A model generated the notes under the pieces. The model saw only the letters and a list, made by a program, of their open reading frames with translations. It made no database searches and was not told the origin of the DNA. A stretch of DNA of 43,353 bases, taken from NCBI GenBank assembly GCA_028699795.1, contig JAQVTZ010000002.1, positions 1 through 43,353 on the forward strand, in the 5' to 3' direction. The translations under genes and the position numbers were made by a program. The stretch is from Clostridia bacterium. GTDB lineage: Bacteria; Bacillota; Clostridia; Christensenellales; DTU072. This document shows, in pieces, positions 4,046-26,649 of this stretch (positions within the stretch are counted from its first letter, which is position 1; every line of letters starts with the position of its first letter).

Positions 4046-4090
4046 ATAAAATCTTATAAGTAATAATATAGTAAAATACACGGTTTTCTC

Positions 4091-4118
4091 TTGCAAAATC
4101 TTGCACCTCTGTTATAAT
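4091..4118 (+). promoter_or_regulatory. Putative sigma-A promoter (extended -10) for the giant surface-protein gene
   Basis: -35 TTGCAA (4091..4096), 16-nt spacer, TGtTATAAT (4110..4118). It lies about 55 nt upstream of ATG 4174, which has an AGAGGTG RBS at 4161..4167. Confidence 0.55.
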
Positions 4119-4173
4119 AAACATGTATATATATAGGGCGCGTAATATATGCGTCCCGCCAGAGGTGCATGAT

Positions 4174-4245
4174 ATGTCAAAAACAACTAGAATAGCCGCG
4201 CTTGTTCTCATTCTAACGATGCTTTTATTAGGCGTTACCGCCTGC
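4174..4245 (+). other. Sec/SPII lipoprotein signal peptide of the giant protein
   Basis: A positively charged N-terminus (KTTR) is followed by the hydrophobic core IAALVLILTMLLLG and lipobox V-T-A-C, with Cys at 4243..4245. Confidence 0.7.
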
Positions 4246-7200
4246 TCTACCGATACGGCCAAGGTTACCGGCATACAACTTGCCGGTGAGTATCGCAATG
4301 TTTATTTGGTAGGGGAAGATCTCGACCTTTCGGGAATGGAACTTTTGTTGGAAAACAGCGACGGGACCACCTCGACCGTTAATATTGCGGATGTCCGCAG
4401 CGATATTAAGTTTCTCAATGTCAACACCGATGCTGTTACAAAACAGCTAGAAATTACAATACAATACCAAAAACAAAAAACAACATTTACGATAGATGTC
4501 GTCAATCCGCAATCCGACGAAAACAGGGTAAATGTGGTTTTTGATTTAAATATTGCTTCTTTAGATGAGCAATCCCGAAAATTTCAAGAAATTAAAGTAT
4601 TACAGCTAAGCAAGCTAAATGCGCCTTCGTCATCTCCTACCAGAGTAGGATACGCCTTCGATGGCTGGTATAAAGATACCGCACTCAAAAACCCCTGGAA
4701 TTTTTCTGTGGACCAAGTTATTTTAACCTCCCAGCATACCCTCAATACCGTTTATTTATATGCCAAATGGACTCCCTATTGCGAAGTAACTTTCTATAAA
4801 ATATTGCCTTCGGGCGAGACGACGCTTATTGCCACAAAAATGGTAAAAAAAGGTGGGTCACTTACAGATTTTCCCAATATCCCTATAGATGCGGGCGAAG
4901 AAAAATACATATTCGAATGGGATTACAGCAGTTTCGAAAGTATTACCGAAAATATCGAGGTATACACCAAAGAACCTGTATTAAAGACATACAATGTAGA
5001 ATTTTATGACAAAATAAACGATGCGGACCAACTTCTTTATATTCTCGAAGATGTTCCTTACGGCACAGACCTTTTGGACCCTTCCACCGTGCTTACCACC
5101 CAACATGGCGCGCAAATTTCTCCTTTACAAGAAATCGGTTTGCTTTCGCCCTCTAACAGAGAAAACCATGTTTTTGCCAATGCTTGGGATTATAAAGGGC
5201 TCACTTATCATATAGCAAATCCGCAAACAAATAACCCGTTGCGCAATGTCAAGCAAAGTATGCAATTGTATGCGCATTACGAAATAAAAACATTTACAGT
5301 TTCTTTCGATCTCAACTATCAAGGTCAGTCTATTACGCCGCCCTCCCCTCAAGTTGTTGCCCACAATACCCCCATCATCGATATTACCGTAACCAGAGAC
5401 GGTTACGATTTCGACGGTTGGTACAAAGATGCCCAATGTACCCGCCCTTGGAATTTTAATACCGAAAAAGTTACAGAAAACCGTACCCTTTATGCCAAAT
5501 GGACCAAGCTGTTCAAGATCGATTTTTACGCAATCTATTATGGCGATGTGGTGGGTGGCACAGAGAGGCAACCGGCGATGGACAACTCCAGTCTTTTGTA
5601 TTACCAAAATAACGACGGAATATGGGAAGACTCTAATGGTAACGAGATGTTTGCATCATCGACAATTGACCCTCAGATGACCGATCCCGTGGGCGGATTC
5701 CTTTATAACTACATCAAAAAAGATAACGTAATCGCCTATACTCGTGTTCTGATTGGTGAGGTAATGGTTCGCCAAGGCGAGACGGCGTCGGCGCTCCCCA
5801 GTGTATATAGCAGCCAAGTAACGCTTGATGGCCATACGGCAAAATGGAGCAGCACCTCTTTTGTCAATATCCAAGAAGATCGTTCTGTTTACGCCATATA
5901 CACAATACGAACTTACAATGTTAAGTTTGTGGACGGCGAAAACCAAATCGGTCCCACACAAGTAATCCCCTATAAAGGTAAGGCAATTGCTCCTAACGAT
6001 ACGAGAGACGAAAACCTTGCCAACAAAGTGGTGTTCGACAATTATGTTACCACTACACGCTGGGGGTATTCGTTTAGCGGATGGAATTCACTTGCCTATC
6101 TCAATGTGACCGAAGATACGACTATTTCGGCAACATTTACCCCTAACACATATAGGGTCACCGTTCAACTTAGTCCTGGCAATACCGAAGTACGCAACGA
6201 GTTGTACGATTCTGTTCTTACGCTTATTACCCCCAACAGAGAAGCGGAGGGGTATGATTTCGACGGTTGGTATACCACGCCCGATTACGCGCCCGGTTCC
6301 GAATGGGGCGCAGACGACAAAGTCACGGGCAATATCAGTATCTATGCGAAATGGGTCGAAATTTACACGATTACTTTTACGGACGGAGCGACAACCAATC
6401 CTTTGGTGCTTGCAACACGCAAGGTGCGCAAGGGAAACAGTTTAACCGATATCCCCGTAGTCCCCGAAATCGTAGGCAAAAACGGTATCTGGCGCGAAGA
6501 CGGCGCAATACCGAATTTCCAAAATGTGCAGCGCGATATGATTATTGCTGCCACATATACAGACAAAACTTTCAATGTAAACTTTAAAAACGGCAATCAT
6601 GACGATTATTTCTATCTTGCCAATGTGCTTTATAATACCAAAGTCGTACCGCCTCTTTCGCCCGAAGACCCGTCTCAAGCGGTTCCCGATCCCGATGCAA
6701 GTTATGTGGGGTATCAATTCGAGGGTTGGACGGTCGCAGGCGTCACAGGCTATGTAAATTTTTCGACTTACCAAATTAAGCAGGATACCACATTTATCGC
6801 AAGTTATTCCCGCCGTACATTTACTGTGCTGTTTGTCGATAACGATTACGACAGCACGGGCGTTGTTTTGCGTGAAGTAACGATAGAATACGAAGCGATT
6901 GCTTATCCGCCCGCAAACCCCCTAAAAACAGGGATGAATTTTTTGGGTTGGTCTACCGACAAAATTACTGTTTCAGACGATTTATCGATTACGGGTGATA
7001 CCGTTTTTTACGCTGTGTATCAAATAAAAGAATATAATGTTACCTTCAAAAGTATCGAAGACAACACTACTTGGGCGACAGTAAAAGTAGAGCATGGCGA
7101 ACTTGCTGCTTATCCGTCGGACATCCCTCAGCCTACTTATAATGGATTTACTTTTACGGGGTGGGATTATGATTTCAACACGCCAATTACTTCGCACAAA

Positions 7201-10200
7201 AATATTTTTGCGATATTCCAAATCAACACCTATACGATTACTTTCGTAACGGGAGAAGGCTCAACTGTAGACCCTGTGACGGCGACACATAACTCCTATG
7301 CGATTGCGCCCCAACAACCAACATATGAAAACATGGCTTTCTTGGGCTGGTATTTGGACGAAATGTACAGCGTACAATACTTGTTTGATCAACCGATGAC
7401 CTCGAATTTAACTTTGTATGCAAAGTGGTCCGAATATGTTAGCGGATTCGGCGATATTGTATTCCAATTAAATAGCGAAAACACGGCATATACGGTAGTG
7501 AGTGTCAATCCCGATGCGCTTGCGGTAAAGATTGATAACTTTTACCAAAACAAGCCTGTTACTTCTATCGGTAGCGGCGCTTTCCGCAACAACCAAAGGT
7601 TACGGGTAGTAATCTTGCCCGATACATTACAAACCATTGGCACAAACGCTTTCGAGGGATGTGTGAACCTGCTTCGTATCGACATTCCCCAACCCGTAAC
7701 CTCTATTGGTGACAATGCTTTTAACGGTTGCATCAATCTGTCTGCCGCAACTTTTACACCAAACTCGGCTTTAACGACAATCGGCAATTACGCATTTATA
7801 AATGCGCGCAGTCTTACGGGGTTGGCGCTCCCAGATACCGTTACAAATATCGGTTCGGGCGCGTTTATGGGTTGTTCTTCTTTATATAGTTTAGAAGTGC
7901 CGCGCGGTGTTACCACAATTGGCGCTTCCGCTTTCGAGAACTGTATCGGCCTTAAATATCTTATTTTCCTAAGACCTTCCCCTTGTATTCTTGGCGAATA
8001 CGCATTCGACGGTGTGACGCAGAGTTTCCGCCTTTATGTGCAGGATGTACTCGCTTATACTTCGGGCGTAACCAGCAATTGGCAAGCGGTAGGCGACAGG
8101 ATTTGTCCTTCGGGAAACATCGCATCCGATTGGTATTACAGTCTAATACAAGTCGGGGCGCACGCGAACAAACTTAGATTATTACATTATCTTGGCAACG
8201 ATACCGATTTAGCGGTACCCGAAACGCTCACTGTCGAAGGTGTCGAACGCACTGTTTATTCTTTAGGAGACTATTTATTTGACGGCAAAGTAACGGCATT
8301 CAAGATGAATTCTGATATGCCGCTTTCTGCAAACACTTTCGGTTCCGCTTCGGGGCTTATGAAACTCGAAGTAAGTATTGTAAACGAGTTGGGCGAACAA
8401 AGAGAATTGCTCAATTCCAACATCACCTATATCCGCAATGCGTTTGAAACCATCAATAGTCTAAAAGAACTTAGTATTTCTGCGGTGGCAACGCTCAAGA
8501 ACTTATTTGGCAATGTCAATCCTCCAGCCAATCTCAAAAAAGTCAATATCCTTAACGACCGAACAGAATTGCCCGCCGATATGTTTTATAATTGCCTTAA
8601 TATTGAGGAAATAACCATTCCCGCTTCTATACAGAATATAGGTAATTATGCTTTCTACGGATGTTATAATCTTCATAGCGTTTCGATAGCGCCTATCAGC
8701 GGTCTTACAAGTATCGGCGAGAGCGCCTTCGAAAACTGTGTCAGCTTACAACAGATTGCGATACCCGATTCCGTTACCGTTATCGAAAGCAATGCGTTCA
8801 AGGCCACGCCTTATGTAACCAATTCCGACGAAACTTTCGTCGTATTGGGAGACGGAATACTGTATTCTTACAACGGCAACGACGAAACGGTTATTCTGCC
8901 CAAAGAAATCAAACAGATCAATGAGTACGCTTTTTATGGCGCTTCTTTGCGCAGCTTTATGTTCGAAGAAGGATCCGTCTTACAAAGCGTAGGAGATTAC
9001 GCTTTTGCCGAATGTGTAAATTTAGAGCATGCGGTTTTCCCAGAAACCATGGCTTCGTTGGGCGAAGGAGCATTCTATAACGATACAAAACTTTCCAAGG
9101 TTATATTCTTCTTATATGATCAATTCGGCGTCAGGATTTACATTGCCGACACGACCAGCATATTTACAAACTGCATGCATACTTTAGAGATTATTGTACC
9201 GTTAGCAAGCAGCTCAAGATTTTTAGAGTCAGATAATAACTGGGAAGAAATTATCCGCGAACAGCTCGATTATCCCGGATGGTCCGGGCTTTCCAGCGCC
9301 AACCTGTATTTCAATGAAGAATGGATTTATAGTTTAGAAGCGGGTCAAGGGATTACCCTGTTGCAATATTACGGTTCCAACAAAGATCTAGTGATACCTT
9401 CCCAAATTGGTAGCGATGAAGTGATAGAACTTGCCAACTATACCATACCGCGTAATACCATAACTTTAGATTTTAGCGTCAGTGTCGCAAGCGATTCCCG
9501 CGTGTTTGGCGCACTCAACGGGCTTACCGAAGTTACGATAAGAGACACGACGAACGCCACCTTTATTATGGAAAAAGATTATATCTACAATATGTTGGCT
9601 GCCAACCGTTCGCTTCACAAAATCAATGTGGGCGGCAAAATGAGTATTTATTCCATTTTAGGAGACCGACTACCGCCCTCCAATATTACGGCGGTTACGG
9701 TATTTGACGGTGAGACCTCGCTTGCGGACGAGATGTTCAAAGATTGTCAATATATTGTCGATATCGAATTGCCCGACTCGTTAACCGATGTGGGTAAGCA
9801 AGCCTTTAATGGAAGCGGTTGGGAAAACGCCTATGATGGCGAATTTGTTACGATTCTGCGGGACTTAGATGGCAGAGGTTTATTGGTAAGCTATAAGGGC
9901 AACCAAAAACATGTCGTGATACCTTCCGATGTAAAAGCAATTAACCGTATGTTGTTTGAAAACAATGCATTTGTTGAAATTGTGAGCGCAAACAATCTTG
10001 AAGCGATTTATGACAATGCCTTTGCGGGCGCGGAGACGCTAAGCAAAATTATTTTAGGCGGAGATGCCCCATCATTCGGAACCGAAGTGTTCAAAGACCT
10101 TATGGAAGGGGCGCAGCTTTTTGCAGATGAGGACAAACTTGCGGGATACCTTTCCGCCGATCTTACAGGCATAGAGCTTGTTGCCAACCATATCACCGTA

Positions 10201-13200
10201 TCGGGAGATTACATGCTACAGACACTGGATGCGACGCATGCGGTGCTGCTGCAATATACAGGCGGCGGAAGCGATGCAGAAATACCCGTTTTTGTGGGCG
10301 ATTACGAAATCGTATCTATAGGCAATAACGCTTTGTATTCCGATATCCAAAACTTGACCTTCCGAGTCTCCGATATTCTCACTCAGTATTCTTTTGGTAA
10401 CCTAAAACTTCTACAATCGGTTACCATACTCGATACAAACAATATTCTTTGTGATAAAGAATATATTTACACACTGTTAACAGAAAACATCAATCTTACC
10501 AAAATATCTTATAATGGCGGAGACTGCACGCTCATCGATTTGTTAAACGGAAACAGTCCTGTTGCTTCCATTAACACGGTAGAAGTGATAGATGGCGCTA
10601 CCTCAATCATAGACGGGATGCTCCAAGAGTACGCCAATATCACCAACATTATATTGCCGTCCACTATACAAACCATAGGGTTGTATGCCTTTGAGAATAC
10701 CGCATGGTATGCGGCGCAGCCCGACTTTGTTATCATATTGGATGGATACCTTTACAAATACAAAGGGACCGAATCCAATGTTACGGTACCCAATACGGTA
10801 AAAGTAATAGGCGAAAGAGCGTTTGCCGATTATCGCGAAGGCGTTTGGGTCGGCAATATGTATGTCAGATCCCTCAAATTCGAAGGCGGAAGTTCGGCGA
10901 CCACAATTTTGTCCGAAGCGTTTTTGTCTTGCGCATTGCTCACAAAAATAGATCTTCCGTGGTCTCTTACCCAAATAGCAGAAAACGCGTTCGACGGCAC
11001 AGGAATGGCGGTAGAGAACGATACTTTGCTTGCCAGAGGCGACAGAGGCGATGCGCTTATCAGATATTATGGTACAAGTTCGCAATACGAGTTGTCCGCC
11101 GGTGTTATTACCATCAATGCTTCGGCGTTCGAAAGCAACGAATACTTGACTGATTTCGTAATCCCCCAAGATAGTCTGCTTGTAATGATCGGTCCGTCGG
11201 CATTTAAGAATTGTATCAATCTGTCTTCCGTCACAATCAATAACGGCGGAGTCTTAAGCGATGTAACAGATATATTGGCGTTAGAATATATCGAAGATAT
11301 CGGCGCCGATGCTTTTGCAGGTACGCCTTGGATGCAATCTCTTGGCAATTATCTTTTTGGCAACGGCAGACTGTTGCTTGCCAAAAACGGTGATGACACA
11401 CTGGTGCTTTCGGACAGCGATAAACCGGCGGGTTACGAACTTAACATGATTGCGAGCAGTGCATTCGCATCGTCTCATGCAACCAAATTGTATATCGATA
11501 TGATATCTCCTCTCTCTCTGGGATTGGGCTCGTTAGACTCGCTTTCCGCAATTTATGTACCTTACGATTTATACGGGATATTTGTTGCTTATTGGAACGG
11601 TTACGCAAGCAAACTGATTCCCGTGCATGTTGCCGAAGGTTCTTTTGTGAATGCCGCTGGTCAGTTGGTTTATGTAAACAAAACCGATACCGCAATTGTC
11701 TTAACAGACCATTGCGGACTGACGGAAATTGCTCCCGACGCCTTTGTGGGAACGGCGGCAACGACTTTGGTCTTAACATCTGTTATACCGCCTGTCATGG
11801 GAGGCGATTGGCTTCACGGCATCAATACCATTTATGTAGCGCCCGAAGCCGTGGACGCATATAAAGCGGCTTGGAGTTCCTACGCTTCTTCTATCCAAAG
11901 CTATACATTGTTGCAAGAAAAATTCCTTGTTTATGACAATATTCTGTATCAGTATGACGGCAATGAAGAAGTGGTAACTGTTCCCATTGGTATCCAAGAG
12001 ATTGCGGGACACGCTTTTGCGAATGCAAACAATATCAAATTCCTTTTTGTTCCGTCGGATGTGACAACGGTACAGTCTTATGCTTATTTCGGATTGCAAA
12101 ATGCGGCGGTAGCGGCAGAACTTTCCAATATCGAAGGCTGGTCTGAAGATTTCGCGGCAAACCTTCTTGGTTTACATACTTCCGTGAGCGCGGGCGTGGC
12201 GGGGATAGAGGGCGACTATATTACCAAACCAGTATCCGGAGGGGCCGAAATCATTCGTTATTTAGGCAATCAAAACAGTGTGACGATACCCGATTCTATC
12301 GCAGGACAAGCGGTTTACGGCATTGCTTCCAAGGCTTTTGCAGGCAATCCGAATATTATCCGAATTACTCTTCCAAGCAGCGTGGAGATTGTCGCCGAAA
12401 ATGCATTCTACGGGTGTGAATCGTTAACCGTTATATTCAAAAGCGCCGCTATCCCTTCGGGGTGCCAAGCGGGCTGGAACAACTGGGTAGAAGAAAGTTA
12501 TGTAAATGGTAATTCAGAATTTTCCGATGCATACGGTAACCAATATATCAACAATGCCGGAAACGCGGTACTCATAAAAGCCGTGTCAGGGCACGAATCA
12601 ATGTCGATTTCTTTGGCGGGAGGACTTACCGTCAAAACCATCGCTGCCAATGCGTTTGCCGAAGTGACGGGATTACGCTCATTAAGGCTTTCCGACACCA
12701 TTATCAATGTCGGTATTTCGGCGTTCATAGGTTGTGAACAAACGGTGCTTTATTTAGATGCCTCACAGGTGCCAGCCACTTGGGCGACAGGCTGGACGGA
12801 CTTTGTATTGGATTATTATACGGATTACAAAAAAGTCTTTACCGTCAACGATGGCGGAGCGGAAGGCACCGGCTTCAAAATGCTTCTTAACGAAGGCGCT
12901 CTTATTATTATAGATTATCAAGGCGATCCTGTTGATCTTGTCATTCCTAACACGGCGATGTACTATTCAATAAATTATTATGTTACCGAAATCTCTTGCT
13001 ACGCTTTTTATAATAAGACAATGCTAGAGTCCGTAACACTAAATGCCGAAATGAAAAAAATAAGCGCGTACGCCTTTGCAGGCTGTACCGCCTTAACAAG
13101 TATCGATTGGAACTCCAAACTGGAGGCAATCGGAACAGGCGCATTTAGTAATAATGCTTGGTTAGACGGGCAAAATTATATTATTGACCAAACTACCCTT

Positions 13201-16200
13201 TATTTGTATGCCGACGCTGCCAATACGGCGGTTATCCCTTCCGAAATAACGAATGTGATTGACGGCGCGTTTTCTATGGGGATTGCGCGGTATGCCGTAT
13301 TTACGATGTCCGTTCCGCCCGAAGTAGCCGATAATGCTTTTATCGGCGTACAAACCGTACTGGTTCCGCAAGGATATCTAGAGGTGTATCGCGCGGCATG
13401 GCCCGCTTACGCAGATTTTATTCAAGCCTACACAGAGGTGAACGGCGCGATGTATTACCGCAATACATTGGTCTATTACAATGGAGACGGAGAAGAATTA
13501 ACTGTTCCTTCCTCTATTGAAGGCTACATTGTTAACGAAATTTCTGACAAAGCTTTCTTAGGAAGCGCGAGCCTCAAAAAATTGGTATTGCCTTCTAGTA
13601 TAAGCACTATGGGCGAAAGCGTGTTTTTGGGTTGTTCTAATCTTGTCATTTATTTGGAAGGCGATAACTCGTTTGCTCCCGACTGGTCTGCAGGCGCAAT
13701 GTATGTATATGCCGATACCTCTAGCCAAACAATTGTTGTAAACGGAGTGCGTTATTTTGAGGAGCTAAACGCCTTTACCGTTATCGGGGTAGAAGAAGGC
13801 TACAAAGAAGTGTTTGTCGAAAGCACCGTAAACGGGCTCGATGTTATCAAAATCGGGCATAGAGCGTTTGCGGGCGGCGGGTTATATAAAGTTACGCTTC
13901 CTGTCTCTATCCAAACTATTGACGCGACTGCATTCCAAGGAGCGGACAATACGGTACTAATTATCTTGGCAGACACCTTGCCCGACGAAACAAACGGTTG
14001 GAGCGCGGACATCAACGAAATCTATGTTGGTGAAAGCAACTTTGTCACCGCGGGCGATTATACGGTCTTCGCAAACGGTGATACGGCGGTATTGTTCGGA
14101 TATAACGGTTCATTAAACGGGATAGCTTTACCCGATACGGTAGCCGATAAAACGCTGACAGGTATCGCAAGCTATGCTTTCCTTGATGCTAGCCTATTTA
14201 AAATAGTACTAAACGAATCTATGGATAAGGATAGCATAAGCGCAAAAGCTTTTGCGGGAATGACAGCAGAATGTGTTGTTTATGTGCGTCAGAATATCAA
14301 TATCAATGATTATGCTTGGGCAGAGGATGTCTATGAAGCTCATGCCGATTATCAAGAGTATGATAGCGGGGATTACAAGGTGATTCCCATGCAATTAGAG
14401 GAAGAAAGCGGGTTAATGATTGTGGGGAGCACAATTTCTATAACGGATTATCTCGAAATACCTTCTTCATTAGCGGTTACAGGGCTTGGTACATTACCCG
14501 TTATAGGTATTGCAAGCTACGCATTCAGCTTACTTCTTTCTAATCCTTACGCCGTCATCATACCCGAGAGTGTAAGCTATATCGGGGGCAAAGCGTTTTC
14601 GAAGATAGAAGAATACGGCACAGCTTCCAATGTTTTTGTAGAAAGTGAAAATGCCAAAACGGGCTTCGCAGAGGGCTGGGACAACGGATTTTCCGATACT
14701 TTTTATAATTGCAATGCGGCTGCAACGGTAAACGGTGTTGTCTATCTTGCAGACGGAGATGAAGCCGTTGTAGTAGGTTATACGGGAGACTCTTCTGTTG
14801 CGGTAATAGAGGGGAAAGTTATTATAGACGGTAACAGTTTCGAAGTTACCAAGATTGCCGCTTATGCGTTCGCTTTTATGCCGCATTTAACAAGAATCTT
14901 TATCCCCGACAGCGTGATAAGCGTTCGCGACCGTATCGCATACGAAAGCGGTGCAGATGTCGTGATGTCGCTCGAGCACTCCATGGTTGCTTCGTATTGG
15001 CCTGTGGGTTGGAACAACTTTGGGGCGCAGCAAGTGAAGATAAGCTCTCAATTGGTCGCAAGTAACGATCTGTTGTTATTGTTCCACAATAATACCTTAA
15101 GTGTTATAAGATATAGCGGTACTGATGCCACAATCACGATACCAGAGTCCGTTTCAGTCGGCGCCAATGTTTACGAAGTAACGGCAATCGAGCCTTATGC
15201 GTTCTATCATTCCGATGCATACCGTATTTATGTACCCGAAAGCGTAGACAGCATAGGAGAATTTGCTTTTGCAGATTGCGACCATGCTATCTTGTTTATC
15301 GGGGACACCAGCTCCGATCCTTCTTGGGATTATACATACGGAGGTTCGACGATTGCATACGATAGCGATGTTAAATATACATATTACAATTATACAGCGT
15401 TCGAGCAGAGAGGGGGGTTCCGTTATGTGCTGGACGGAATATCAGCGCATATTGTAGATTATGTCGGCACCGATACCGAACTTGAGATAGAAGATACGAT
15501 TATCATCGATATGGTAACCTACGAGGTCAATGCCATTGGTCCGTACGCGTTTGCGTTCCTTACTGATATCACAAAAATCATTCTTCCCGACACTATAAAT
15601 ATGGTGTACCAAGATGCGTTTTTAGGGACTTCCAATGCCGCGCTTTATCTTACCCATGTTATGGTGCCCGTTTATTGGCCCCAAGGATGGGAGGGAGACA
15701 CATTGCATGTCACTCTTAATGCGGCGAATACTTGCGAAGAACAACTCTTCCAATATATCTGTTATACCCCCGAAGTAGGACAAAGAACGGCAACGATTAC
15801 GGGTTTTTCCGGAGGCTCCGTCTCAGAGCTTACCATTCCCGCATCCTTTATTCACCCAATTGACGGTTTAAATTATAAGGTAACCCGAATTGCAGAGTAT
15901 GCATTTGCCAATAGGACAGAATTAAGTTCGGTTAATTTGCCGCAGAATGAAGATAGCAACCTAACCGAAATTGGCGCATACGCTTTCTATCGGTGTATCC
16001 GCTTATCGACAATTTCCAATTTTGACAGCAAAATTGTGAATATCGGAGAAAACGCCTTCCAGTCTACTCTATGGTACCAAAACATTTCGGATAAATATTT
16101 AAAAAGTAACGATAGACTAAGGCTCTACACAGGAAACGAAAGCGCGGTAATCTTTGATGCGCAAACCCAAATCGATATTTTGGGCGGAGCGTTCGCCTCG

Positions 16201-18363
16201 AGCGAGGAATTAAAGTATGTGGTATTTTTAGACGGAATCAAACCCGAAGTACATTCGGACGCATTTGTTTCGGTAGAAAAAATACTTGTTCCCGAAGCGA
16301 ATCTCCAGATGTATCAAAATCTGTGGCCCGAGAACAGCCACAAAATAGATAGCTTTCATGAAGAAAACGGCATGCTGTTCTACCAAAATAAACTTATCGC
16401 CATTATCAATAAAGTTGACACGGATTTAACGATACCTCAGCAAGTTGAAGATTATACCATAGACACTATCCTTTCACATGTCGACAAAACGGGTCGCGAT
16501 ACTTTATTAAGTCTTACGATACCCCGAACAGTCACAACGATAGGCCCCAACACTTTCCCGTACACCGCGGTATATTTTGAGGTTGCAAACAGATTGGAAG
16601 GATACAGCACCGCCTTTACCGCATTAGAAGAGTATTTTGATATAGGCGAATTCTTCCATTTAGAAGGCGCAACATTTGCGGTTATCGATGGCAAAGCAAA
16701 GCTGATAAATTATTACGGAGATGCAAAAGAATATACAATACCTCTTAGTGTTTTTTATAACGGAACCGATTACGAAGTATCCGCAATCGGCTCGTATGCT
16801 TTTGCCCAAAACAACTATGTAAAGAGCGTCTATTTGCCCAAAGGTATCGACAGCATTGGTGTGTACGCTTTCAGAACGGCGTTCTCAGGGCCTCAAGAGC
16901 CCGAGTTTATCTTGTACACTGGTCTTTCGGAGGATTCTTATCCTTGGTACAATAATTGGGAAATGCCGGTATACTTTAATATCCCCAAAGTACAAAGTCA
17001 AGGCTCCATGAGATATGTTGTAACAGATGACGGGATTACGATAACACAATATTTCGGAACAGTAAGCGTGTTTGACATCCCGCAATCTCTTACCATAAAC
17101 CAAGTCGCGATTAGTGTGACGGCAATAGGCGCGTACGCATTCTACAATGTATCCTCATTGGCCAATATCACCATTCCCTCAAGTGTAAGAATGATAGGCA
17201 AACATGCCTTTACAGGAACAAAATGGTTGCAAGACGCAGGAGATTTCATAGTTGACAATAGTAGGCTGTTGCTTTATAATGGTGAAGACAAAAATGTTAC
17301 AATCGAAGAGTCATCGGGCATAAGAAGTATTGTAGGCGGCGCATTCTTAAGCAGCAGGGCATTCAGGTTGGTCATCAACGGAGACACACCGATGATAGAG
17401 TTGTACGACCACGCTTTCGACGGAATCGAAATCATCGATGTGCCCAGTGTCGCATCAGACATTTACCGAGAATATATCTGGACAAATTATCAGTCCATGA
17501 TTATCGGAAGTGTACGCATCGGCGAATACGGGTTCTCACTTAACCCAGACGGGACAGCAAAAATTATAGGATATTACGGCGAGTCCGCTACGCCCGAATT
17601 GCCTTCTTCCGTCACTGTTGGCGAAAGATCGTATACCGTCAATGAGTTGGGTGACAAGTTGTTCAAAGGCAGAACCGAACTTATCCAAATAATATTGCCC
17701 CGAAGCATACAGTATCTCGGAGAAAATGTCTTTACAGATTGTAACAATACCGTAGTCTATTTGCGGCACGAAGTTATCCCCGCCTGGCCGACGGGTTGGT
17801 ACAATGACTTGTTGCATGTTTATTCCAATATCGACAACTTTGTGGCAATAGGCGATTACACCGTCCAACTCAACGCAGGCAATCACGAACTAACAATAGT
17901 ACAATATAATGGGGTTGCATCCTCGGTTGCCATTTCGTCTATGATTTACGGAGCATCCGAATATACGGTAACACGCATAGGGTATTACGCCTTTTATCAC
18001 AAGACCTTTGTCAGCGAAGTTACTATGGCGGTCACGGTAGAGCAAATCGACAAGTATGCTTTCGAAGGTACTGCTTGGGCAAGCAACGGCACAGACAAAA
18101 AAGTCTTCGGCAATAAACTGATGCTGTATACCGGGAGCGCCACTTCGCTAACAATAAGCGAAACAGATGCCATTACGGCCATATGCGGCGGCGCATTTGC
18201 CTCTTCCGATGTGACCGTATTAGATATTACGGCAGAGGCCACGATTACTTTAGACGAGGGCGCGCTACAAGGCATCCAAACGATTTATGTAAACGCGGCC
18301 ACAGTAGACGAATTCAAAGATTTATGGCCGCAATACGCCGAGATAATTACGGCAAGACCTTAG
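4174..18363 (+). CDS. Giant (4,729 aa) surface lipoprotein: Ig-like domain, about 12 Flg_new (Listeria-Bacteroides) repeats and a very long BspA-type LRR region
   Basis: The uninterrupted ORF 4123..18363 is taken from the ORF track. The preferred start is ATG 4174, which has an RBS and gives MSKTTRIAALVLILTMLLLGVTAC (lipobox VTAC). Recurrent G[YF]xFxGW...LYAKW motifs and xIGxxAFxxCxxLxxIxIPxSV motifs run throughout. No LPXTG, SLH or cell-wall-binding repeats were seen. Confidence 0.9.
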   Translation: MSKTTRIAALVLILTMLLLGVTACSTDTAKVTGIQLAGEYRNVYLVGEDLDLSGMELLLENSDGTTSTVNIADVRSDIKFLNVNTDAVTKQLEITIQYQKQKTTFTIDVVNPQSDENRVNVVFDLNIASLDEQSRKFQEIKVLQLSKLNAPSSSPTRVGYAFDGWYKDTALKNPWNFSVDQVILTSQHTLNTVYLYAKWTPYCEVTFYKILPSGETTLIATKMVKKGGSLTDFPNIPIDAGEEKYIFEWDYSSFESITENIEVYTKEPVLKTYNVEFYDKINDADQLLYILEDVPYGTDLLDPSTVLTTQHGAQISPLQEIGLLSPSNRENHVFANAWDYKGLTYHIANPQTNNPLRNVKQSMQLYAHYEIKTFTVSFDLNYQGQSITPPSPQVVAHNTPIIDITVTRDGYDFDGWYKDAQCTRPWNFNTEKVTENRTLYAKWTKLFKIDFYAIYYGDVVGGTERQPAMDNSSLLYYQNNDGIWEDSNGNEMFASSTIDPQMTDPVGGFLYNYIKKDNVIAYTRVLIGEVMVRQGETASALPSVYSSQVTLDGHTAKWSSTSFVNIQEDRSVYAIYTIRTYNVKFVDGENQIGPTQVIPYKGKAIAPNDTRDENLANKVVFDNYVTTTRWGYSFSGWNSLAYLNVTEDTTISATFTPNTYRVTVQLSPGNTEVRNELYDSVLTLITPNREAEGYDFDGWYTTPDYAPGSEWGADDKVTGNISIYAKWVEIYTITFTDGATTNPLVLATRKVRKGNSLTDIPVVPEIVGKNGIWREDGAIPNFQNVQRDMIIAATYTDKTFNVNFKNGNHDDYFYLANVLYNTKVVPPLSPEDPSQAVPDPDASYVGYQFEGWTVAGVTGYVNFSTYQIKQDTTFIASYSRRTFTVLFVDNDYDSTGVVLREVTIEYEAIAYPPANPLKTGMNFLGWSTDKITVSDDLSITGDTVFYAVYQIKEYNVTFKSIEDNTTWATVKVEHGELAAYPSDIPQPTYNGFTFTGWDYDFNTPITSHKNIFAIFQINTYTITFVTGEGSTVDPVTATHNSYAIAPQQPTYENMAFLGWYLDEMYSVQYLFDQPMTSNLTLYAKWSEYVSGFGDIVFQLNSENTAYTVVSVNPDALAVKIDNFYQNKPVTSIGSGAFRNNQRLRVVILPDTLQTIGTNAFEGCVNLLRIDIPQPVTSIGDNAFNGCINLSAATFTPNSALTTIGNYAFINARSLTGLALPDTVTNIGSGAFMGCSSLYSLEVPRGVTTIGASAFENCIGLKYLIFLRPSPCILGEYAFDGVTQSFRLYVQDVLAYTSGVTSNWQAVGDRICPSGNIASDWYYSLIQVGAHANKLRLLHYLGNDTDLAVPETLTVEGVERTVYSLGDYLFDGKVTAFKMNSDMPLSANTFGSASGLMKLEVSIVNELGEQRELLNSNITYIRNAFETINSLKELSISAVATLKNLFGNVNPPANLKKVNILNDRTELPADMFYNCLNIEEITIPASIQNIGNYAFYGCYNLHSVSIAPISGLTSIGESAFENCVSLQQIAIPDSVTVIESNAFKATPYVTNSDETFVVLGDGILYSYNGNDETVILPKEIKQINEYAFYGASLRSFMFEEGSVLQSVGDYAFAECVNLEHAVFPETMASLGEGAFYNDTKLSKVIFFLYDQFGVRIYIADTTSIFTNCMHTLEIIVPLASSSRFLESDNNWEEIIREQLDYPGWSGLSSANLYFNEEWIYSLEAGQGITLLQYYGSNKDLVIPSQIGSDEVIELANYTIPRNTITLDFSVSVASDSRVFGALNGLTEVTIRDTTNATFIMEKDYIYNMLAANRSLHKINVGGKMSIYSILGDRLPPSNITAVTVFDGETSLADEMFKDCQYIVDIELPDSLTDVGKQAFNGSGWENAYDGEFVTILRDLDGRGLLVSYKGNQKHVVIPSDVKAINRMLFENNAFVEIVSANNLEAIYDNAFAGAETLSKIILGGDAPSFGTEVFKDLMEGAQLFADEDKLAGYLSADLTGIELVANHITVSGDYMLQTLDATHAVLLQYTGGGSDAEIPVFVGDYEIVSIGNNALYSDIQNLTFRVSDILTQYSFGNLKLLQSVTILDTNNILCDKEYIYTLLTENINLTKISYNGGDCTLIDLLNGNSPVASINTVEVIDGATSIIDGMLQEYANITNIILPSTIQTIGLYAFENTAWYAAQPDFVIILDGYLYKYKGTESNVTVPNTVKVIGERAFADYREGVWVGNMYVRSLKFEGGSSATTILSEAFLSCALLTKIDLPWSLTQIAENAFDGTGMAVENDTLLARGDRGDALIRYYGTSSQYELSAGVITINASAFESNEYLTDFVIPQDSLLVMIGPSAFKNCINLSSVTINNGGVLSDVTDILALEYIEDIGADAFAGTPWMQSLGNYLFGNGRLLLAKNGDDTLVLSDSDKPAGYELNMIASSAFASSHATKLYIDMISPLSLGLGSLDSLSAIYVPYDLYGIFVAYWNGYASKLIPVHVAEGSFVNAAGQLVYVNKTDTAIVLTDHCGLTEIAPDAFVGTAATTLVLTSVIPPVMGGDWLHGINTIYVAPEAVDAYKAAWSSYASSIQSYTLLQEKFLVYDNILYQYDGNEEVVTVPIGIQEIAGHAFANANNIKFLFVPSDVTTVQSYAYFGLQNAAVAAELSNIEGWSEDFAANLLGLHTSVSAGVAGIEGDYITKPVSGGAEIIRYLGNQNSVTIPDSIAGQAVYGIASKAFAGNPNIIRITLPSSVEIVAENAFYGCESLTVIFKSAAIPSGCQAGWNNWVEESYVNGNSEFSDAYGNQYINNAGNAVLIKAVSGHESMSISLAGGLTVKTIAANAFAEVTGLRSLRLSDTIINVGISAFIGCEQTVLYLDASQVPATWATGWTDFVLDYYTDYKKVFTVNDGGAEGTGFKMLLNEGALIIIDYQGDPVDLVIPNTAMYYSINYYVTEISCYAFYNKTMLESVTLNAEMKKISAYAFAGCTALTSIDWNSKLEAIGTGAFSNNAWLDGQNYIIDQTTLYLYADAANTAVIPSEITNVIDGAFSMGIARYAVFTMSVPPEVADNAFIGVQTVLVPQGYLEVYRAAWPAYADFIQAYTEVNGAMYYRNTLVYYNGDGEELTVPSSIEGYIVNEISDKAFLGSASLKKLVLPSSISTMGESVFLGCSNLVIYLEGDNSFAPDWSAGAMYVYADTSSQTIVVNGVRYFEELNAFTVIGVEEGYKEVFVESTVNGLDVIKIGHRAFAGGGLYKVTLPVSIQTIDATAFQGADNTVLIILADTLPDETNGWSADINEIYVGESNFVTAGDYTVFANGDTAVLFGYNGSLNGIALPDTVADKTLTGIASYAFLDASLFKIVLNESMDKDSISAKAFAGMTAECVVYVRQNININDYAWAEDVYEAHADYQEYDSGDYKVIPMQLEEESGLMIVGSTISITDYLEIPSSLAVTGLGTLPVIGIASYAFSLLLSNPYAVIIPESVSYIGGKAFSKIEEYGTASNVFVESENAKTGFAEGWDNGFSDTFYNCNAAATVNGVVYLADGDEAVVVGYTGDSSVAVIEGKVIIDGNSFEVTKIAAYAFAFMPHLTRIFIPDSVISVRDRIAYESGADVVMSLEHSMVASYWPVGWNNFGAQQVKISSQLVASNDLLLLFHNNTLSVIRYSGTDATITIPESVSVGANVYEVTAIEPYAFYHSDAYRIYVPESVDSIGEFAFADCDHAILFIGDTSSDPSWDYTYGGSTIAYDSDVKYTYYNYTAFEQRGGFRYVLDGISAHIVDYVGTDTELEIEDTIIIDMVTYEVNAIGPYAFAFLTDITKIILPDTINMVYQDAFLGTSNAALYLTHVMVPVYWPQGWEGDTLHVTLNAANTCEEQLFQYICYTPEVGQRTATITGFSGGSVSELTIPASFIHPIDGLNYKVTRIAEYAFANRTELSSVNLPQNEDSNLTEIGAYAFYRCIRLSTISNFDSKIVNIGENAFQSTLWYQNISDKYLKSNDRLRLYTGNESAVIFDAQTQIDILGGAFASSEELKYVVFLDGIKPEVHSDAFVSVEKILVPEANLQMYQNLWPENSHKIDSFHEENGMLFYQNKLIAIINKVDTDLTIPQQVEDYTIDTILSHVDKTGRDTLLSLTIPRTVTTIGPNTFPYTAVYFEVANRLEGYSTAFTALEEYFDIGEFFHLEGATFAVIDGKAKLINYYGDAKEYTIPLSVFYNGTDYEVSAIGSYAFAQNNYVKSVYLPKGIDSIGVYAFRTAFSGPQEPEFILYTGLSEDSYPWYNNWEMPVYFNIPKVQSQGSMRYVVTDDGITITQYFGTVSVFDIPQSLTINQVAISVTAIGAYAFYNVSSLANITIPSSVRMIGKHAFTGTKWLQDAGDFIVDNSRLLLYNGEDKNVTIEESSGIRSIVGGAFLSSRAFRLVINGDTPMIELYDHAFDGIEIIDVPSVASDIYREYIWTNYQSMIIGSVRIGEYGFSLNPDGTAKIIGYYGESATPELPSSVTVGERSYTVNELGDKLFKGRTELIQIILPRSIQYLGENVFTDCNNTVVYLRHEVIPAWPTGWYNDLLHVYSNIDNFVAIGDYTVQLNAGNHELTIVQYNGVASSVAISSMIYGASEYTVTRIGYYAFYHKTFVSEVTMAVTVEQIDKYAFEGTAWASNGTDKKVFGNKLMLYTGSATSLTISETDAITAICGGAFASSDVTVLDITAEATITLDEGALQGIQTIYVNAATVDEFKDLWPQYAEIITARP
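4258..4503 (+). other. Ig-like (Big_3-like) domain
   Basis: AKVTGIQLAGEYRNVYLVGEDLDLSGMELLLENSDGTTSTVNIADV...LEITIQYQKQKTTFTIDV matches the usual bacterial Ig-like pattern: Y.VGe.LDLsG..l.v.ysDGt...v, ending ...i.y.g....f.I.V. Confidence 0.5.
4525..7428 (+). repeat. Array of about 12 Flg_new / InlB-B-type (Listeria-Bacteroides) repeats
   Basis: Canonical G-[YFM]-x-F-x-G-W cores begin at nt 4648, 5401, 6064, 6250, 6709, 6931, 7144 and 7333. Each is followed 25-35 aa later by [LIV]YA.[WYF]. Degenerate copies (..F.W / ..KW) sit at 4903, 5170, 5830 and 6478. Confidence 0.8.
7435..18360 (+). repeat. BspA-type leucine-rich-repeat (LRR_5-like) region organised in higher-order cassettes
   Basis: There are dozens of roughly 23-25-aa units such as VTSIGSGAFRNNQRLRVVILPDTLQTIGTNAFEGCVNLLRIDIPQPVTSIGDNAFNGCINL. 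Cassette-ending motifs recur (details in findings). Confidence 0.85.
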
Positions 18364-18420
18364 CAATAAATAGCAGAGCTATTCGATATAAAAAACAAAT
18401 CACTTACGGGAGTATGTTAA

Positions 18421-20949
18421 ATGAAACAGAGCTTTAAGAAATATTTTGTTGTAATGCTTGCTGTTGTTTTAATATCAAGTTTGATGCTTGGTTGTAACGG
18501 TTGCATTAAAGATCCGCCAACGACGACACCTACAGACTATACCGTCGATATCGACATTTTGCCGGATCTCTATGACCTCAGTGTCAGCGCCAACGACTAT
18601 GCGCCAAGCGCCGTGACCTACGAATCGGTTGTAAGAAGCACGCAGGCGGATAAACTGCTGGCAAAGCAAGAGTCCGAAAAAGAGAAGCATAATTATATCG
18701 ATACCAATAGCGACGGCAATCTGGATTCCAACTTCGATACCGTCACAGGCAAATATGCTTGGGACAATGTTTACTATGATGCAGATGCCCAAGAATATGT
18801 ATGGGATGAAGACGGCGACGAAGGCGAAACCACTACCTTTACCAAGATTTTCCTTTTCTGCGATATCAATGCTCTCATCGGCAGAATGGCCGCTGCCGCA
18901 TTGCCGCAAGACAAGATGATAGAACTAATTGACTACATTACGCGCGATGACCCCGCGGGAGACGATTATCTCATGACAGCGGGTACAGGAAGCGCGATAC
19001 GCGACTACGAAGAGCTGGACGAACTTTACGATGTGTATGACGAAGACGACTCCGACAGCAATTACAGAAAGTTGCAACAAAAACGCCGCAAAGTGATGCA
19101 CGAAGTATTCGGCATCTTCCAAGACGATGCAGCATCCGCGGCAAGAACGGCAATCGAAATTCTCGCCTATGCCCAAGAAGTTGTCGCCACCGAAATGATA
19201 GACGATTACGAAGAAAACACAGGCTCGCGCCCCGGCTTTTACGATTTCTTTAAAGGGGAATTGTTCGACTACGATACGCTGGTTTATTTCCTTGCCTTCA
19301 ACGAAACTTGCGGGGCGACCGGAGATTATTTGCTAAGCAATGTCAATTATACGATTTCTGCCGTCAACAAAAAAGAGATGACCAAACTTTACGGCTACTA
19401 TTATCAATATCAAAAAAGAGATTTCGACCTCTTTACCGATACAGAATACTTCGAGTATTTGGATTTGAGCCTTTTAGATTATTACGATAATAAAGCCGAC
19501 GCGCTCAAATACAGAGATTACGACAGAGAGCATTATGCGGGCGCCTACAGATACTCTGCAGAATTTTATGAAAAATATTATCAAGCGCATTTCTTATTCC
19601 AAGGCAAACAAGAAAAGCAAGATATTAGAGTCTACGGTGTCGATAAAGATTGGTCTACCAGTTATGCCAACGAAATGCAGAAAGGTTGCGATGCCGGTAT
19701 GGAAGCGACCCTAAAGCTGAGCGATGTCAACTGGGAGTATAGCGCAACAGACAGCAATGTCACAAACTACAACATTGCGGCGAAAGCGTATTACAGCTTG
19801 CCCGAAGATGACAGAACGGGCAGCAAGCCCTCTAACGAAGCCAGACTTAAGTTGGTCAAACTCAGAGTCGAACAGCTTAAGAGCCAACATTATACCATAA
19901 CCCATAAATCGATTGAATCTGCCGATCTCGGCAATGCATTAAAGTACCAGATTTATTCTTTCAGCGGTGATTATGCCCGCACCTTGCTGTCTAACCGCAA
20001 AGACGATATTTATATGACGGCGGAGCGCGCAAGAATCGCTCCCGATGATACAGAAAAAATCAGCGCAAAGGACGAGGAAATCGGTCGCAACACAGCGATG
20101 TTTGCCAATCATAATTATTTCTATATCGAAAAGGGCAATGTGACACATCAGTTATCAATTGCGAATGAATATAATTGGGGTGAGATTGCCGATGGAATGG
20201 AACAAACTATCGCGTATGACTTCGAAGAATATCAAACGAAATATCTTGCAGGAGAACCGCCGGAAGTTATCGATGGCGAAACGGTAGATTATAATGACCC
20301 CGTAGATATCCAATTCGAAGACACGCTTATCAAAAAGAATATTGTAGGCGAAGGCGCCAACCAAAAGAAAGAGTACGATACCGACTGGGAAATCTCCCGT
20401 CTTTTGGATAACCACGAAAATGTCTTCCGTTATGCATTCGGACAGGTTGTCGTGTACTATATGGAAGGGGACAACCTCGAAGATTATACGCTAAAAGGCG
20501 AATATGTTACCGATAGTCAACATGCGCCCGATAGCATTATCGACCCCGAATCACCTGAGTTCTACAATAACACGATAAAAGCCATTAGTACATCCGACTT
20601 CGAGAAATTCTCAAGTAACGCCATAAACTATAGCGATTATCAAGAAGAAAGTTACGAATCCGATGAAAGAGTCGAGCTTGCCTTGTTTGCAGCTGGCGAA
20701 TGGGAGGGTATTTTGCCGACCAACGGGAATGTAAGCGGCTCTCCCTCGCTGTATACCTTCCAAAAAACCGAAACAGTTTCGGGCAATGCCAGAAATTATA
20801 ATTATTATCTTATTTTCGAAGGTTGGTATGTCGATGAGGACTTGCAATACAAAGCCGAATTGGAAGACGACCAGTTTGGAGAAGAGTACGATTATGATAT
20901 TCGCCTCTACCCCGGATATAAAGTTATAAAGGTGTTGCAAGAACAGTAA
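18421..20949 (+). CDS. Highly acidic D/E/Y-rich lipoprotein of unknown function, with a C-terminal Flg_new-like motif
   Basis: 842-aa ORF with GGGAG 8 nt upstream. Signal and lipobox read MKQSFKKYFVVMLAVVLISSLMLGC, followed by a PPTTTPT linker. An EF-hand/dockerin-like loop DTNSDGNLDSNFD lies at 18700..18738. The C-terminus reads LIFEGWYVDEDLQYKAE...IRLYPGYKV (20815..20919). I recognise no other family. Confidence 0.8.
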   Translation: MKQSFKKYFVVMLAVVLISSLMLGCNGCIKDPPTTTPTDYTVDIDILPDLYDLSVSANDYAPSAVTYESVVRSTQADKLLAKQESEKEKHNYIDTNSDGNLDSNFDTVTGKYAWDNVYYDADAQEYVWDEDGDEGETTTFTKIFLFCDINALIGRMAAAALPQDKMIELIDYITRDDPAGDDYLMTAGTGSAIRDYEELDELYDVYDEDDSDSNYRKLQQKRRKVMHEVFGIFQDDAASAARTAIEILAYAQEVVATEMIDDYEENTGSRPGFYDFFKGELFDYDTLVYFLAFNETCGATGDYLLSNVNYTISAVNKKEMTKLYGYYYQYQKRDFDLFTDTEYFEYLDLSLLDYYDNKADALKYRDYDREHYAGAYRYSAEFYEKYYQAHFLFQGKQEKQDIRVYGVDKDWSTSYANEMQKGCDAGMEATLKLSDVNWEYSATDSNVTNYNIAAKAYYSLPEDDRTGSKPSNEARLKLVKLRVEQLKSQHYTITHKSIESADLGNALKYQIYSFSGDYARTLLSNRKDDIYMTAERARIAPDDTEKISAKDEEIGRNTAMFANHNYFYIEKGNVTHQLSIANEYNWGEIADGMEQTIAYDFEEYQTKYLAGEPPEVIDGETVDYNDPVDIQFEDTLIKKNIVGEGANQKKEYDTDWEISRLLDNHENVFRYAFGQVVVYYMEGDNLEDYTLKGEYVTDSQHAPDSIIDPESPEFYNNTIKAISTSDFEKFSSNAINYSDYQEESYESDERVELALFAAGEWEGILPTNGNVSGSPSLYTFQKTETVSGNARNYNYYLIFEGWYVDEDLQYKAELEDDQFGEEYDYDIRLYPGYKVIKVLQEQ

Positions 20950-20973
20950 TGATTCAAAACAATACTCGTTTTT

Positions 20974-21009
20974 ACCCCCGCGCAGGTACCCGCGCGGGGG
21001 TAATTTTTT
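20974..21009 (+). terminator. Rho-independent terminator closing the surface-protein gene pair
   Basis: A 10-bp GC-rich stem pairs ACCCCCGCGC (20974..20983) with GCGCGGGGGT (20992..21001). The loop is 8 nt and a TTTTTT tract follows at 21004..21009. Confidence 0.85.
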
Positions 21010-23405: not shown

Positions 23406-23427
23406 TCTTTTTCATGGTTATAGAAAG

Positions 23428-23460
23428 AAAAGCGGCTGTTTTTGCAGCCGTTTTTCTTTT
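23428..23460 (+). terminator. Rho-independent terminator after the acyltransferase gene
   Basis: Stem CGGCTG (23433..23438) pairs with CAGCCG (23445..23450) and is extendable with flanking A/U pairs. TTTTTCTTTT follows. Confidence 0.6.
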
Positions 23461-23494
23461 TGCGGAAAACCAATTGTGGTTTGTGGTAAGAATT

Positions 23495-23525
23495 CTTGCG
23501 AATAATATACTTGATTATTCGCAAG
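23495..23525. promoter_or_regulatory. Perfect 12-bp inverted repeat (operator-like, or a second terminator) upstream of luxS
   Basis: CTTGCGAATAAT (23495..23506), then 7 nt, then ATTATTCGCAAG (23514..23525), followed by TTTT. It overlaps a candidate luxS promoter: -35 TTGATT at 23511..23516, 17-nt spacer, -10 TACAAT at 23534..23539. Confidence 0.55.
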
Positions 23526-23575
23526 TTTTGTATTACAATTATATCTTAGTAAAGAATATTAAACGGGGAAGTAAA

Positions 23576-24115
23576 ATGCAAACAATTCCGTCTTTCACAG
23601 TAGATCATCTTAAGCTAAAAAGTGGGCTTTTCGTATCTCGCAAGGATATACTTGGCAGCGTTGTCATTACTACTTTCGATTTAAGGCTAAAGCGGCCTTA
23701 CCATGACCCCGTGATGGATACGGCATCGGTACATGCGCTAGAGCACATATGCGCGACTTATCTTAGAAACGATGCGCTTTGGGGCGAAAGAGTGCTATAT
23801 TTCGGACCGATGGGTTGCCGTACGGGTTTTTATTTAATCATGATAGGTGATTTTTCTTCGGAAGACATTCTGCCGCTTGTCGAAAGAACATTCGATTATG
23901 CTTCGGATTTCGAGGGGGACATACCGGGAGCAACGCCAAAAGAGTGCGGCTATTGTGTCGATATGGACTTAGAGCTTGCCAAAACAGACGCCGCCATGTA
24001 CTACAATATTCTTATTGCCCCCAAAAAAGAAAATCTTTTCTATCCCGTAAAGAGGACGCGCAAACCCAAAGCAAAACCCGATACGGGTACCGTCGATGAT
24101 AATCAGGAGGAATAA
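23576..24115 (+). CDS. luxS: S-ribosylhomocysteine lyase (AI-2 synthase)
   Basis: MQTIPSFTVDHLKL... carries the metal-binding HALEH motif, GPMGCRTGFYL and a C-terminal CG. The N-terminal extension shown in the ORF track (23402) spans the terminator and the inverted repeat, so it was rejected. GGGGAAG lies upstream of the ATG. Confidence 0.9.
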   Translation: MQTIPSFTVDHLKLKSGLFVSRKDILGSVVITTFDLRLKRPYHDPVMDTASVHALEHICATYLRNDALWGERVLYFGPMGCRTGFYLIMIGDFSSEDILPLVERTFDYASDFEGDIPGATPKECGYCVDMDLELAKTDAAMYYNILIAPKKENLFYPVKRTRKPKAKPDTGTVDDNQEE

Positions 24116-25231: not shown

Positions 25232-25238
25232 TATTATT

Positions 25239-26633: not shown

Positions 26634-26649
26634 TCAGCAAGGAGAATCT

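Follow-up and report, generated by a model that had tools for sequence, protein, structure and literature searches.

An uncharacterised lipoprotein family of Clostridia whose genes follow those of giant leucine-rich repeat proteins in close relatives

We analysed a stretch of 43,353 nucleotides from a Clostridia bacterium (assembly GCA_028699795.1, contig JAQVTZ010000002.1), hereafter the window, and in it a lipoprotein gene of 842 codons, the target, which directly follows a giant gene coding for a BspA-type lipoprotein with leucine-rich repeats (LRR). We find that the two genes very probably constitute one functional and transcriptional unit. The only guide to the function of the target is this pairing, from which we infer, tentatively and with something short of even confidence, that its product is a membrane-tethered surface lipoprotein, the conserved second subunit or an accessory factor of the two-gene module of the giant LRR protein. 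The target open reading frame (ORF) is a real gene, which begins 57 nucleotides past the stop of the giant ORF at 18363; the length of 842 residues, the gap and the gene's own ribosome-binding site, all described in an earlier sequence-only reading of this DNA, were each recovered in place.

The pairing was followed across related loci, restricted to close ones, i.e. those where the relative has at least about 30% identity and upstream DNA is available: 19 loci, and 20 with the window. In every one of the 19 a giant-like gene, detected by tblastn on the same strand, ends 29 to 289 nucleotides upstream of the target homologue, the gap being 29–79 nucleotides in 17 of them (18 of 20 with the window). 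The open frames found upstream range from 322 to more than 3300 residues, most of them cut by the end of the locus or of the contig. A terminator-like hairpin followed by a T-run occurs in none of the 20 gaps, the two long ones (277 and 289 nucleotides) holding weak hairpins; after the stop of the target such a structure is present in 18 of the 19 related loci, thus in 19 of 20 with the window. The sequence-only reading had linked the target to the giant LRR gene, and this link is borne out: homologues of the target do adjoin LRR genes, the two-gene unit being found in 20/20 close loci. It is kept even in locus L024, where both flanks have changed (dnaA on one side; serA, serC, gyrA and gyrB on the other); since the pair stays intact there despite both flanks differing, it behaves as a unit. 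A more distant member of the family, P0050, also sits after an LRR_5 protein.

In the window itself the likely start of a two-gene transcript is a promoter-like site, recognised by consensus match only (Table 1). A single messenger RNA running from a promoter near 4100 to the intrinsic terminator behind the target would carry both genes; at the level of sequence their co-transcription is well supported. The start called for the giant, ATG 4123, lies only 5 nucleotides past the -10 element of this site; a second ATG at 4174, after GAGGTG, opens a lipoprotein signal (MSKTTRIAALV...LLGVTAC) and is probably the true start. The giant matches the Pfam families LRR_5 (1e-204, 15 stretches), Flg_new (1e-57) and Big_3, and carries a lipobox of its own, MSKTTRIAALVLILTMLLLGVTAC, of which LTMLLLGVTAC matches the pattern. 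This is also the case in the related loci: wherever the N-terminus of the upstream giant is visible it is that of a lipoprotein, with three complete examples of about 2460–2500 residues that have lipoboxes. As the giant is itself a lipoprotein, the target is not needed as its anchor, and we rejected this role.

Table 1. Position of the features of the target gene and of its transcription unit in the window.
Feature	Position	Strand	Details
Promoter-like site TTGCAA-16-TGtTATAAT	4091..4118	+	consensus scan, 10/12 matches, extended -10 TG; consensus match only
Giant BspA-type LRR/Flg_new/Big_3 lipoprotein gene	4123..18363	+	ORF call, 4746 residues
Intergenic gap giant/target	18364..18420	+	57 nucleotides; ribosome-binding site inside; no terminator-like hairpin
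Ribosome-binding site GGGAG	18408-18412	+	8 nucleotides before the target ATG
Target ORF	18421-20949	+	842 residues, ATG start, lipoprotein gene
Type II (lipoprotein) signal peptide	18421..18495	+	residues 1-25; lipobox L-M-L-G-C; Cys25; PROSITE PS51257
Pro/Thr-rich disordered tether	18496..18555	+	about residues 26-45; PPTTTPT at residues 32-38; model confidence (pLDDT) <50 for residues 1-39
N-terminal LPDxVDYG motif and long helix, then hypervariable acidic loop	18556..18834	+	residues 46-89; loop 90-138
Non-repetitive all-alpha core	18835..20256	+	residues 139-612; pLDDT mostly >90; most invariant residues
Mixed alpha/beta region	20257..20628	+	residues 613-736; conserved FEDTLIKK, EYDTDW..SRLLDNHE
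C-terminal beta domain	20629..20946	+	residues 737-842; last ~40 residues a Flg_new half-unit
Intrinsic terminator	20972..21003	+	12-bp stem, 9 G-C pairs, then TTTTTTG; precedes the Na/Pi cotransporter gene

In the arrangement we favour, Sec would export both products, each would receive its lipid at the lipobox cysteine, and the two would remain on the outside of one and the same membrane. The mature target, about 800 residues on a flexible tether of about 20, would be a compact Tyr-rich helical core followed by an alpha/beta region and a beta domain like Flg_new, and might bind to the Big_3/Flg_new stalk of the giant, close to the membrane, stabilise it or assist in its assembly; our inferences here are the lipidation of the proteins, transcription of both genes together in vivo, physical association of the products and whatever binding activity there may be. 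Besides the pairing itself and the natural fusion described below, two further observations support such a partnership: the giant and the target both carry the Flg_new repeat type, and a constant target stands beside a far more variable giant—compared with locus L001, identity is 53% for the target against 19–36% for the giant. A docking tail on the giant was also considered, and rejected: its C-terminal 200 residues are only marginally more conserved, and the comparison of this end is uninformative because the repeats misalign. A bolder form of the proposal would make the target, with a new fold, the obligate “constant” subunit of an undescribed two-lipoprotein surface machine of Christensenellales-like Clostridia, one that docks on a hypervariable giant at its Flg_new/Big_3 stalk and is needed for the display or function of this giant, the stand-alone homologues being the ancestral form; we hold this complete version to be rather unlikely.

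Several observations weigh against a role as subunit or accessory factor of the giant. Distant members of the family (at most about 25% identity) stand alone among housekeeping genes, without any LRR neighbour, namely the four lipoprotein genes of L025 (22% identity), L026 (P0057), L029 (P0077) and L030 (P0072); because these homologues stand alone, the core has some function for which an adjacent giant is not strictly necessary. Besides, the family is narrow and much of the synteny downstream (Na/Pi cotransporter, LuxS, M29 peptidase and others) is conserved, so that part of the adjacency of the two genes may reflect shared ancestry. None of the RNA runs searched holds the target sequence. 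Finally, no fold or sequence relative of known function was found in Pfam, NCBIfam, the PDB or BFVD.

The same stand-alone genes give some weight to the idea of an autonomous surface protein, whose Tyr-rich core would bind its own ligand—a glycan, an envelope polymer or an environmental substrate—or be structural, the giant having been inserted upstream in one lineage and merely sharing its transcript. Both L025 and L030 have their gene upstream of PGK-TIM, like the region of the window, which suggests that the stand-alone position of the target is ancestral and that the giant gene joined it later. Conservation of the core is also strong and extends to many invariant Tyr and charged residues, which a defined surface for binding or for a structural role would lead one to expect, and the core accepts other N-terminal modules, e.g. 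collagen-like and Cys-rich repeats in P0077. However, the pair, once formed, was never split in about 20 loci, even after relocation, neither a terminator nor an evident promoter lies between the two genes, and Foldseek detected no known carbohydrate-binding or enzyme fold. We consider this explanation rather unlikely.

One natural rearrangement brings the two kinds of protein into a single chain. In L028, the protein P0046 is a natural fusion, in which an N-terminal module of a lipoprotein bearing LRR_5 is joined to the family core at the motif LPD.V.YG. This locus (ENA contig BRZ_AF NODE_79, positions 6003-14077) holds two adjacent lipoprotein genes with a common N-terminal module of 580 residues: this module, which contains an LRR_5 unit, is 70% identical between both genes as a whole and fully identical over its first 60 residues; the C-terminal halves are unrelated and only the second gene, that of P0046, bears the family core. 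The arrangement looks like a recent tandem duplication or recombination that yielded the fusion. We rejected the possibility that the upstream protein is a paralogue related to the family over its whole length, since only the 580-residue module, and not the core, is common with P0046. In another locus, L021 (2-9876), the giant gene is found in two overlapping frames (2-5527 and 5443-9876) and the target is intact; this split reflects either a frameshift, i.e. a pseudogene, or an assembly error. In L018 the target homologue is followed by 3.2 kb of AT-rich DNA (12550-15728, 32% GC) with no ORF of at least 100 residues, no Rfam match and no repeat array.

The gene order and the unequal conservation of the two proteins bear also on a different role, that of a lipid-anchored extracytoplasmic chaperone or assembly factor similar to PrsA, which would fold or extend the 4700-residue giant after Sec export while remaining outside the final structure. 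The target is encoded directly after this would-be client on what would be the same messenger RNA, it would reside in the same membrane leaflet and its conservation far exceeds that of the client, and the stand-alone homologues could serve clients encoded elsewhere. As in the PrsA-type foldases of Gram-positive bacteria, a lipid-anchored extracytoplasmic helper would be placed where Sec substrates emerge; unlike them, the target has no parvulin or peptidyl-prolyl isomerase domain and no match in Pfam or NCBIfam, and it is three times larger. More generally no peptidyl-prolyl isomerase, thioredoxin or other known chaperone domain or fold was found, and a rigid globular protein of 800 residues, with a hypervariable exposed loop and a display-type Flg_new domain, rather resembles a displayed protein. 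A chaperone seems to us improbable.

The N-terminus of the target has the sequence pattern of a lipoprotein signal. PROSITE PS51257 calls, within about the first 40 residues, for a positively charged n-region, a hydrophobic h-region and a lipobox [LIVMFWSTAG]2-[LIVMFYSTAGCQ]-[AGS]-C; the target N-terminus, MKQSFKKYFVVMLAVVLISSLMLGC, fits this pattern with Cys25 as the lipobox cysteine, which is presumably lipidated. The LMLGC lipobox and the PPTTTPT linker noticed by the sequence-only reading are both present, and the pattern predicts a type II signal as that reading had assumed. It is kept in 35 of 37 close and 35 of 40 distant members of the family, in which the tether varies in both length and sequence. 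The target had also been called hyper-acidic and rich in D, E and Y. The composition is indeed D 10.5%, E 8.8% and Y 9.3%, with an isoelectric point (pI) of 4.30 and a net charge of -85, and both acidic runs exist; but the pI of the giant neighbour is 4.36 and the family mean 4.7, so that the acidity of the target is only relative. The high Tyr content (8–9.4%), by contrast, is an unusual trait common to the whole family.

The AlphaFold2 model, built on an alignment of 37 sequences, has a mean predicted local distance difference test score (pLDDT) of 85 and a predicted template modelling score of 0.84. It places a long helix at residues 69-89, ahead of the variable loop, then a helical core with the motifs LYGYYYQY, YRDYDR..Y..AYRYS and ALKYQIYS.S.DY and about 19 invariant Tyr. 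Comparison of its segments by hhalign found no internal repeats in the target, which ruled out an architecture of the TPR or HEAT type. With Foldseek, the full model retrieved no PDB chain at E<1 (best E 1.5) and a separate model of the C-terminal part (pLDDT 71) did no better than E 0.41; in BFVD the best match was a weak one to an InlB-like phage protein (E 0.34). Matches to BAR/eisosome, talin and PAS folds were rejected, their E values not being significant. The predicted fold of the core is thus apparently one without characterised relative, as far as the libraries scanned can tell, since none of them gave a match; this search on the predicted model yielded no confident match to an enzyme or transport family.

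The succession of a helical core and C-terminal beta domains could nevertheless be that of a new enzyme displayed on the surface, with a polymer as substrate, for example a lyase or hydrolase of polysaccharides whose catalytic domain is helical and whose accessory domain is a beta-sandwich. In the alignment of the family, 40 columns are invariant (members at 35–64% identity to the query), of which 19 are Tyr; the others include the charged residues D195, K221, K224, E228, R242, D283, E398 and D435, and H665 is near-invariant, which counts in favour of this reading. Moreover a GH5 cellulase-family gene and an alpha-amylase-family gene lie directly upstream of the giant in the window (302-4045). 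But the model matches no alpha/alpha-toroid or other enzyme fold of the PDB, no catalytic motif is recognisable, and tblastn reported no match for the GH5 and amylase genes in the related loci, most of which hold only giant-gene DNA upstream. We regard an enzymatic function as quite improbable.

The clearest kinship of the target with other proteins is at its C-terminus, where the sequence-only reading had noticed a unit like Flg_new (the Listeria-Bacteroides repeat). The residues Y795-Y830 form a divergent half-unit of this repeat, Y.F.GWY.D...YD..LYP. Aligned by hhalign with 60 bona fide Flg_new repeats, it scores a probability of 95.5% and an E value of 1.4e-8 over 31 columns, which correspond to the second half of the repeat. 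In the other direction, the family profile retrieves proteins rich in Flg_new at E 1e-18 to 1e-4, by its positions ~755-824, and those sampled among the proteins matched in multiple stretches are classic Flg_new proteins, e.g. P0089, in which Flg_new matches 20 stretches for 745 bits. A hidden Markov model (HMM) made from the eight Flg_new units of the giant gives just 7 bits on the target; even so, all full-length members of the family have their best match to it at this one C-terminal place, with up to 13.6 bits. The Pfam gathering threshold of 27 bits is not reached by the target, which has no match at E<=10; P0077 attains 20.4 bits, and a single one of 37 members matches Flg_new (E 0.0088). 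By BLASTP the target and the giant share only the motif F.GWY.D (E>3), and of the complete B-repeat fold of about 65 residues the C-terminal half alone aligns; Foldseek shows no significant similarity to B-repeat structures, its best match being again the weak InlB-like protein of BFVD, with none in the PDB. The claim of a Flg_new-like unit thus holds at the level of profiles, for half a unit and below the Pfam threshold; the interval 20815-20919 proposed for it encodes FEGWY...PGY, two residues off the peptide quoted with it. We conclude that the C-terminus of the target is related to Flg_new as a divergent half-unit. Compared with Flg_new proper (PF09479; InlB B-repeat), the last ~35–40 residues of the target bear the signature Y.F.GWY.D ... 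LY[AP], and among the proteins that its family profile picks up are some with as many as 20 such repeats; unlike in these proteins, the unit is in single copy, reduced to the second half and enclosed in a beta domain of ~105 residues, of which it is part, and makes less than 10% of the protein.

In the acidic N-terminal region the sequence-only reading had pointed to a calcium-binding type of loop, DTNSDGNLDSNFD (containing DTNSDGNLD), which is found exactly as described, at residues 94-106 (18700-18738), inside a hypervariable region of insertions and deletions. An EF-hand or dockerin loop is expected to have 12 residues of the form D-x-[DN]-x-[DN]-G...[DE], with an acidic position 12, and to be conserved among homologues. 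The target loop departs from this on both counts: its position 12 in DTNSDGNLDSNF is Phe, not D or E, and the loop is present only in the target and in its two closest relatives, P0002 and P0003. The acidic run YYDADAQEYVWDEDGDEGE (residues 118-136) is likewise an insertion, found only in the target and P0003 and modelled with pLDDT <50, the score dropping to 48–63 over residues 111-140. The second acidic run (195-215) lies within two conserved helices, with D195, Y196 and Y206 invariant.

These data leave little room for a calcium-binding acidic matrix protein, in which calcium around the adhesin would be bound by the D/E-rich runs and by the DxNxDG loop. Such a role could be read into the net charge of -85 and the pI of 4.30, the DTNSDGNLD loop and a more canonical DTDGDGTNDVLD in P0015 and P0017. 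But the loop and the 118-136 run, which were the main basis for the cation-binding role proposed earlier, are lineage-specific insertions in a hypervariable region, are absent from most members and have low model confidence at residues 117-134; Phe occupies position 12 of the loop; the family mean pI of 4.7 differs little from the pI of the giant and is usual among the secreted proteins here; and neither EF-hand nor dockerin of Pfam matches the target at E<=10. We judge this role very improbable.

The target belongs to an uncharacterised and lineage-restricted family. That it matches no recognised family, as first noticed by eye, is confirmed by Pfam and NCBIfam, which give nothing on the protein at E<=10, and Pfam finds no consistent family on all 37 members at E<=1. 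The best match of the family profile to PDB sequences has E 0.58, a chance match, and the literature searched in full text holds nothing on the target family nor on LRR lipoproteins of Christensenellales. A word-indexed search returned 37 clusters, all full-length (~770–915 residues) and annotated as hypothetical, whose named members are exclusively proteins of metagenome-assembled genomes of Clostridia or Christensenellaceae. When 1.84 billion representatives were scanned exhaustively by HMMER, the family profile gave 162 matches, of which about 55 are full-length relatives, counted as clusters at 50% identity; the remaining ones cover only positions ~755-824, in 4–15 stretches each. Full-length homologues extend from 97% down to ~30% identity to the target. 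With one genome scanned for each GTDB species, 25 loci came up, belonging to Candidatus Stercoripulliclostridium, Christensenellaceae and other Clostridia from animal guts and digesters; the organism of the window occurs in landfill, anaerobic-digester and manure metagenomes.

Most relatives have, just before EYDTDW, an insertion of the form C-x(n)-C-x(n)-H-x2-C (SCGG...C...H..C), at a place corresponding to residues 640-650 of the target (20338-20370). It might be a metal or disulfide knuckle. The target and its closest subclade are devoid of it, having lost it.

Downstream of the pair, the window carries housekeeping genes: a Na/Pi cotransporter, a WS/DGAT-like protein, LuxS, an M29 peptidase, an acyltransferase, SpoVT, MurJ, MazG and Dus, and further on PGK, TIM, iPGM and CTP synthase. 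The WS/DGAT- or condensation-like gene (22107-23405), between the Na/Pi cotransporter and LuxS, occurs in L001, L002 and L019 as it does in the window, but most other syntenic loci lack it at this place, an insertion or deletion in a gene order that is otherwise conserved. The ORFs called for LuxS (23402-24115), the acyltransferase (25185-26474) and SpoVT (26614-27177) have N-terminal extensions unmatched by homologues, whose matches begin at about residues 35–62, 2–27 and 3–13 respectively, and the acyltransferase call overlaps the M29 gene by 47 nucleotides; the true starts of these three genes probably lie downstream of the calls.

Placed among known systems, the target can be described as a candidate accessory surface lipoprotein of an adhesin operon, with an uncharacterised and apparently novel fold. 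Internalin-type operons like inlAB code for LRR surface proteins anchored by LPXTG or GW modules. The pair resembles these BspA-type LRR/internalin operons in that a surface protein is encoded together with an LRR adhesin-like protein, both with Flg_new-type units; it differs by a target with a lipid anchor instead of LPXTG or GW modules, a novel helical fold and no LRR (Pfam finds no LRR_5 in it). SusD-like glycan-binding lipoproteins are also largely alpha-helical and adjoin a large surface component, but the target has no SusD or TPR match by Foldseek, its host belongs to Bacillota and not to Bacteroidota, and it has no TonB-dependent partner. In the adhesion complexes of Mollicutes, wall-poor relatives of Bacillota, a large adhesin and a co-transcribed partner, both transmembrane-anchored, are both required (P1 with P40/P90, P140 with P110). 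They offer an analogy for how an adhesin and its co-transcribed partner might work here; they share neither sequence nor fold with the target, which is a lipoprotein instead of a transmembrane protein, and a complex of the present pair is putative. These nearest functional analogies, adhesin-partner pairs and PrsA, come from general knowledge and imply no homology; of the family relationships tested, only that of the last ~40 residues with Flg_new stood up, at profile level.

Because the organisms are uncultured and the family narrow, the immediate impact of these observations is modest, and the biochemical lead on the target is limited to its pairing with the giant gene. Giant BspA-type LRR proteins are nevertheless common in anaerobic Bacillota, and to our knowledge their display and assembly have been little studied. 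The target family is a candidate for a new Pfam or DUF entry; and a lipoprotein partner that is more conserved than the giant, putatively co-transcribed with it, and whose confidently predicted fold has no match in the PDB would offer a concrete entry to the biology of the giant LRR proteins.

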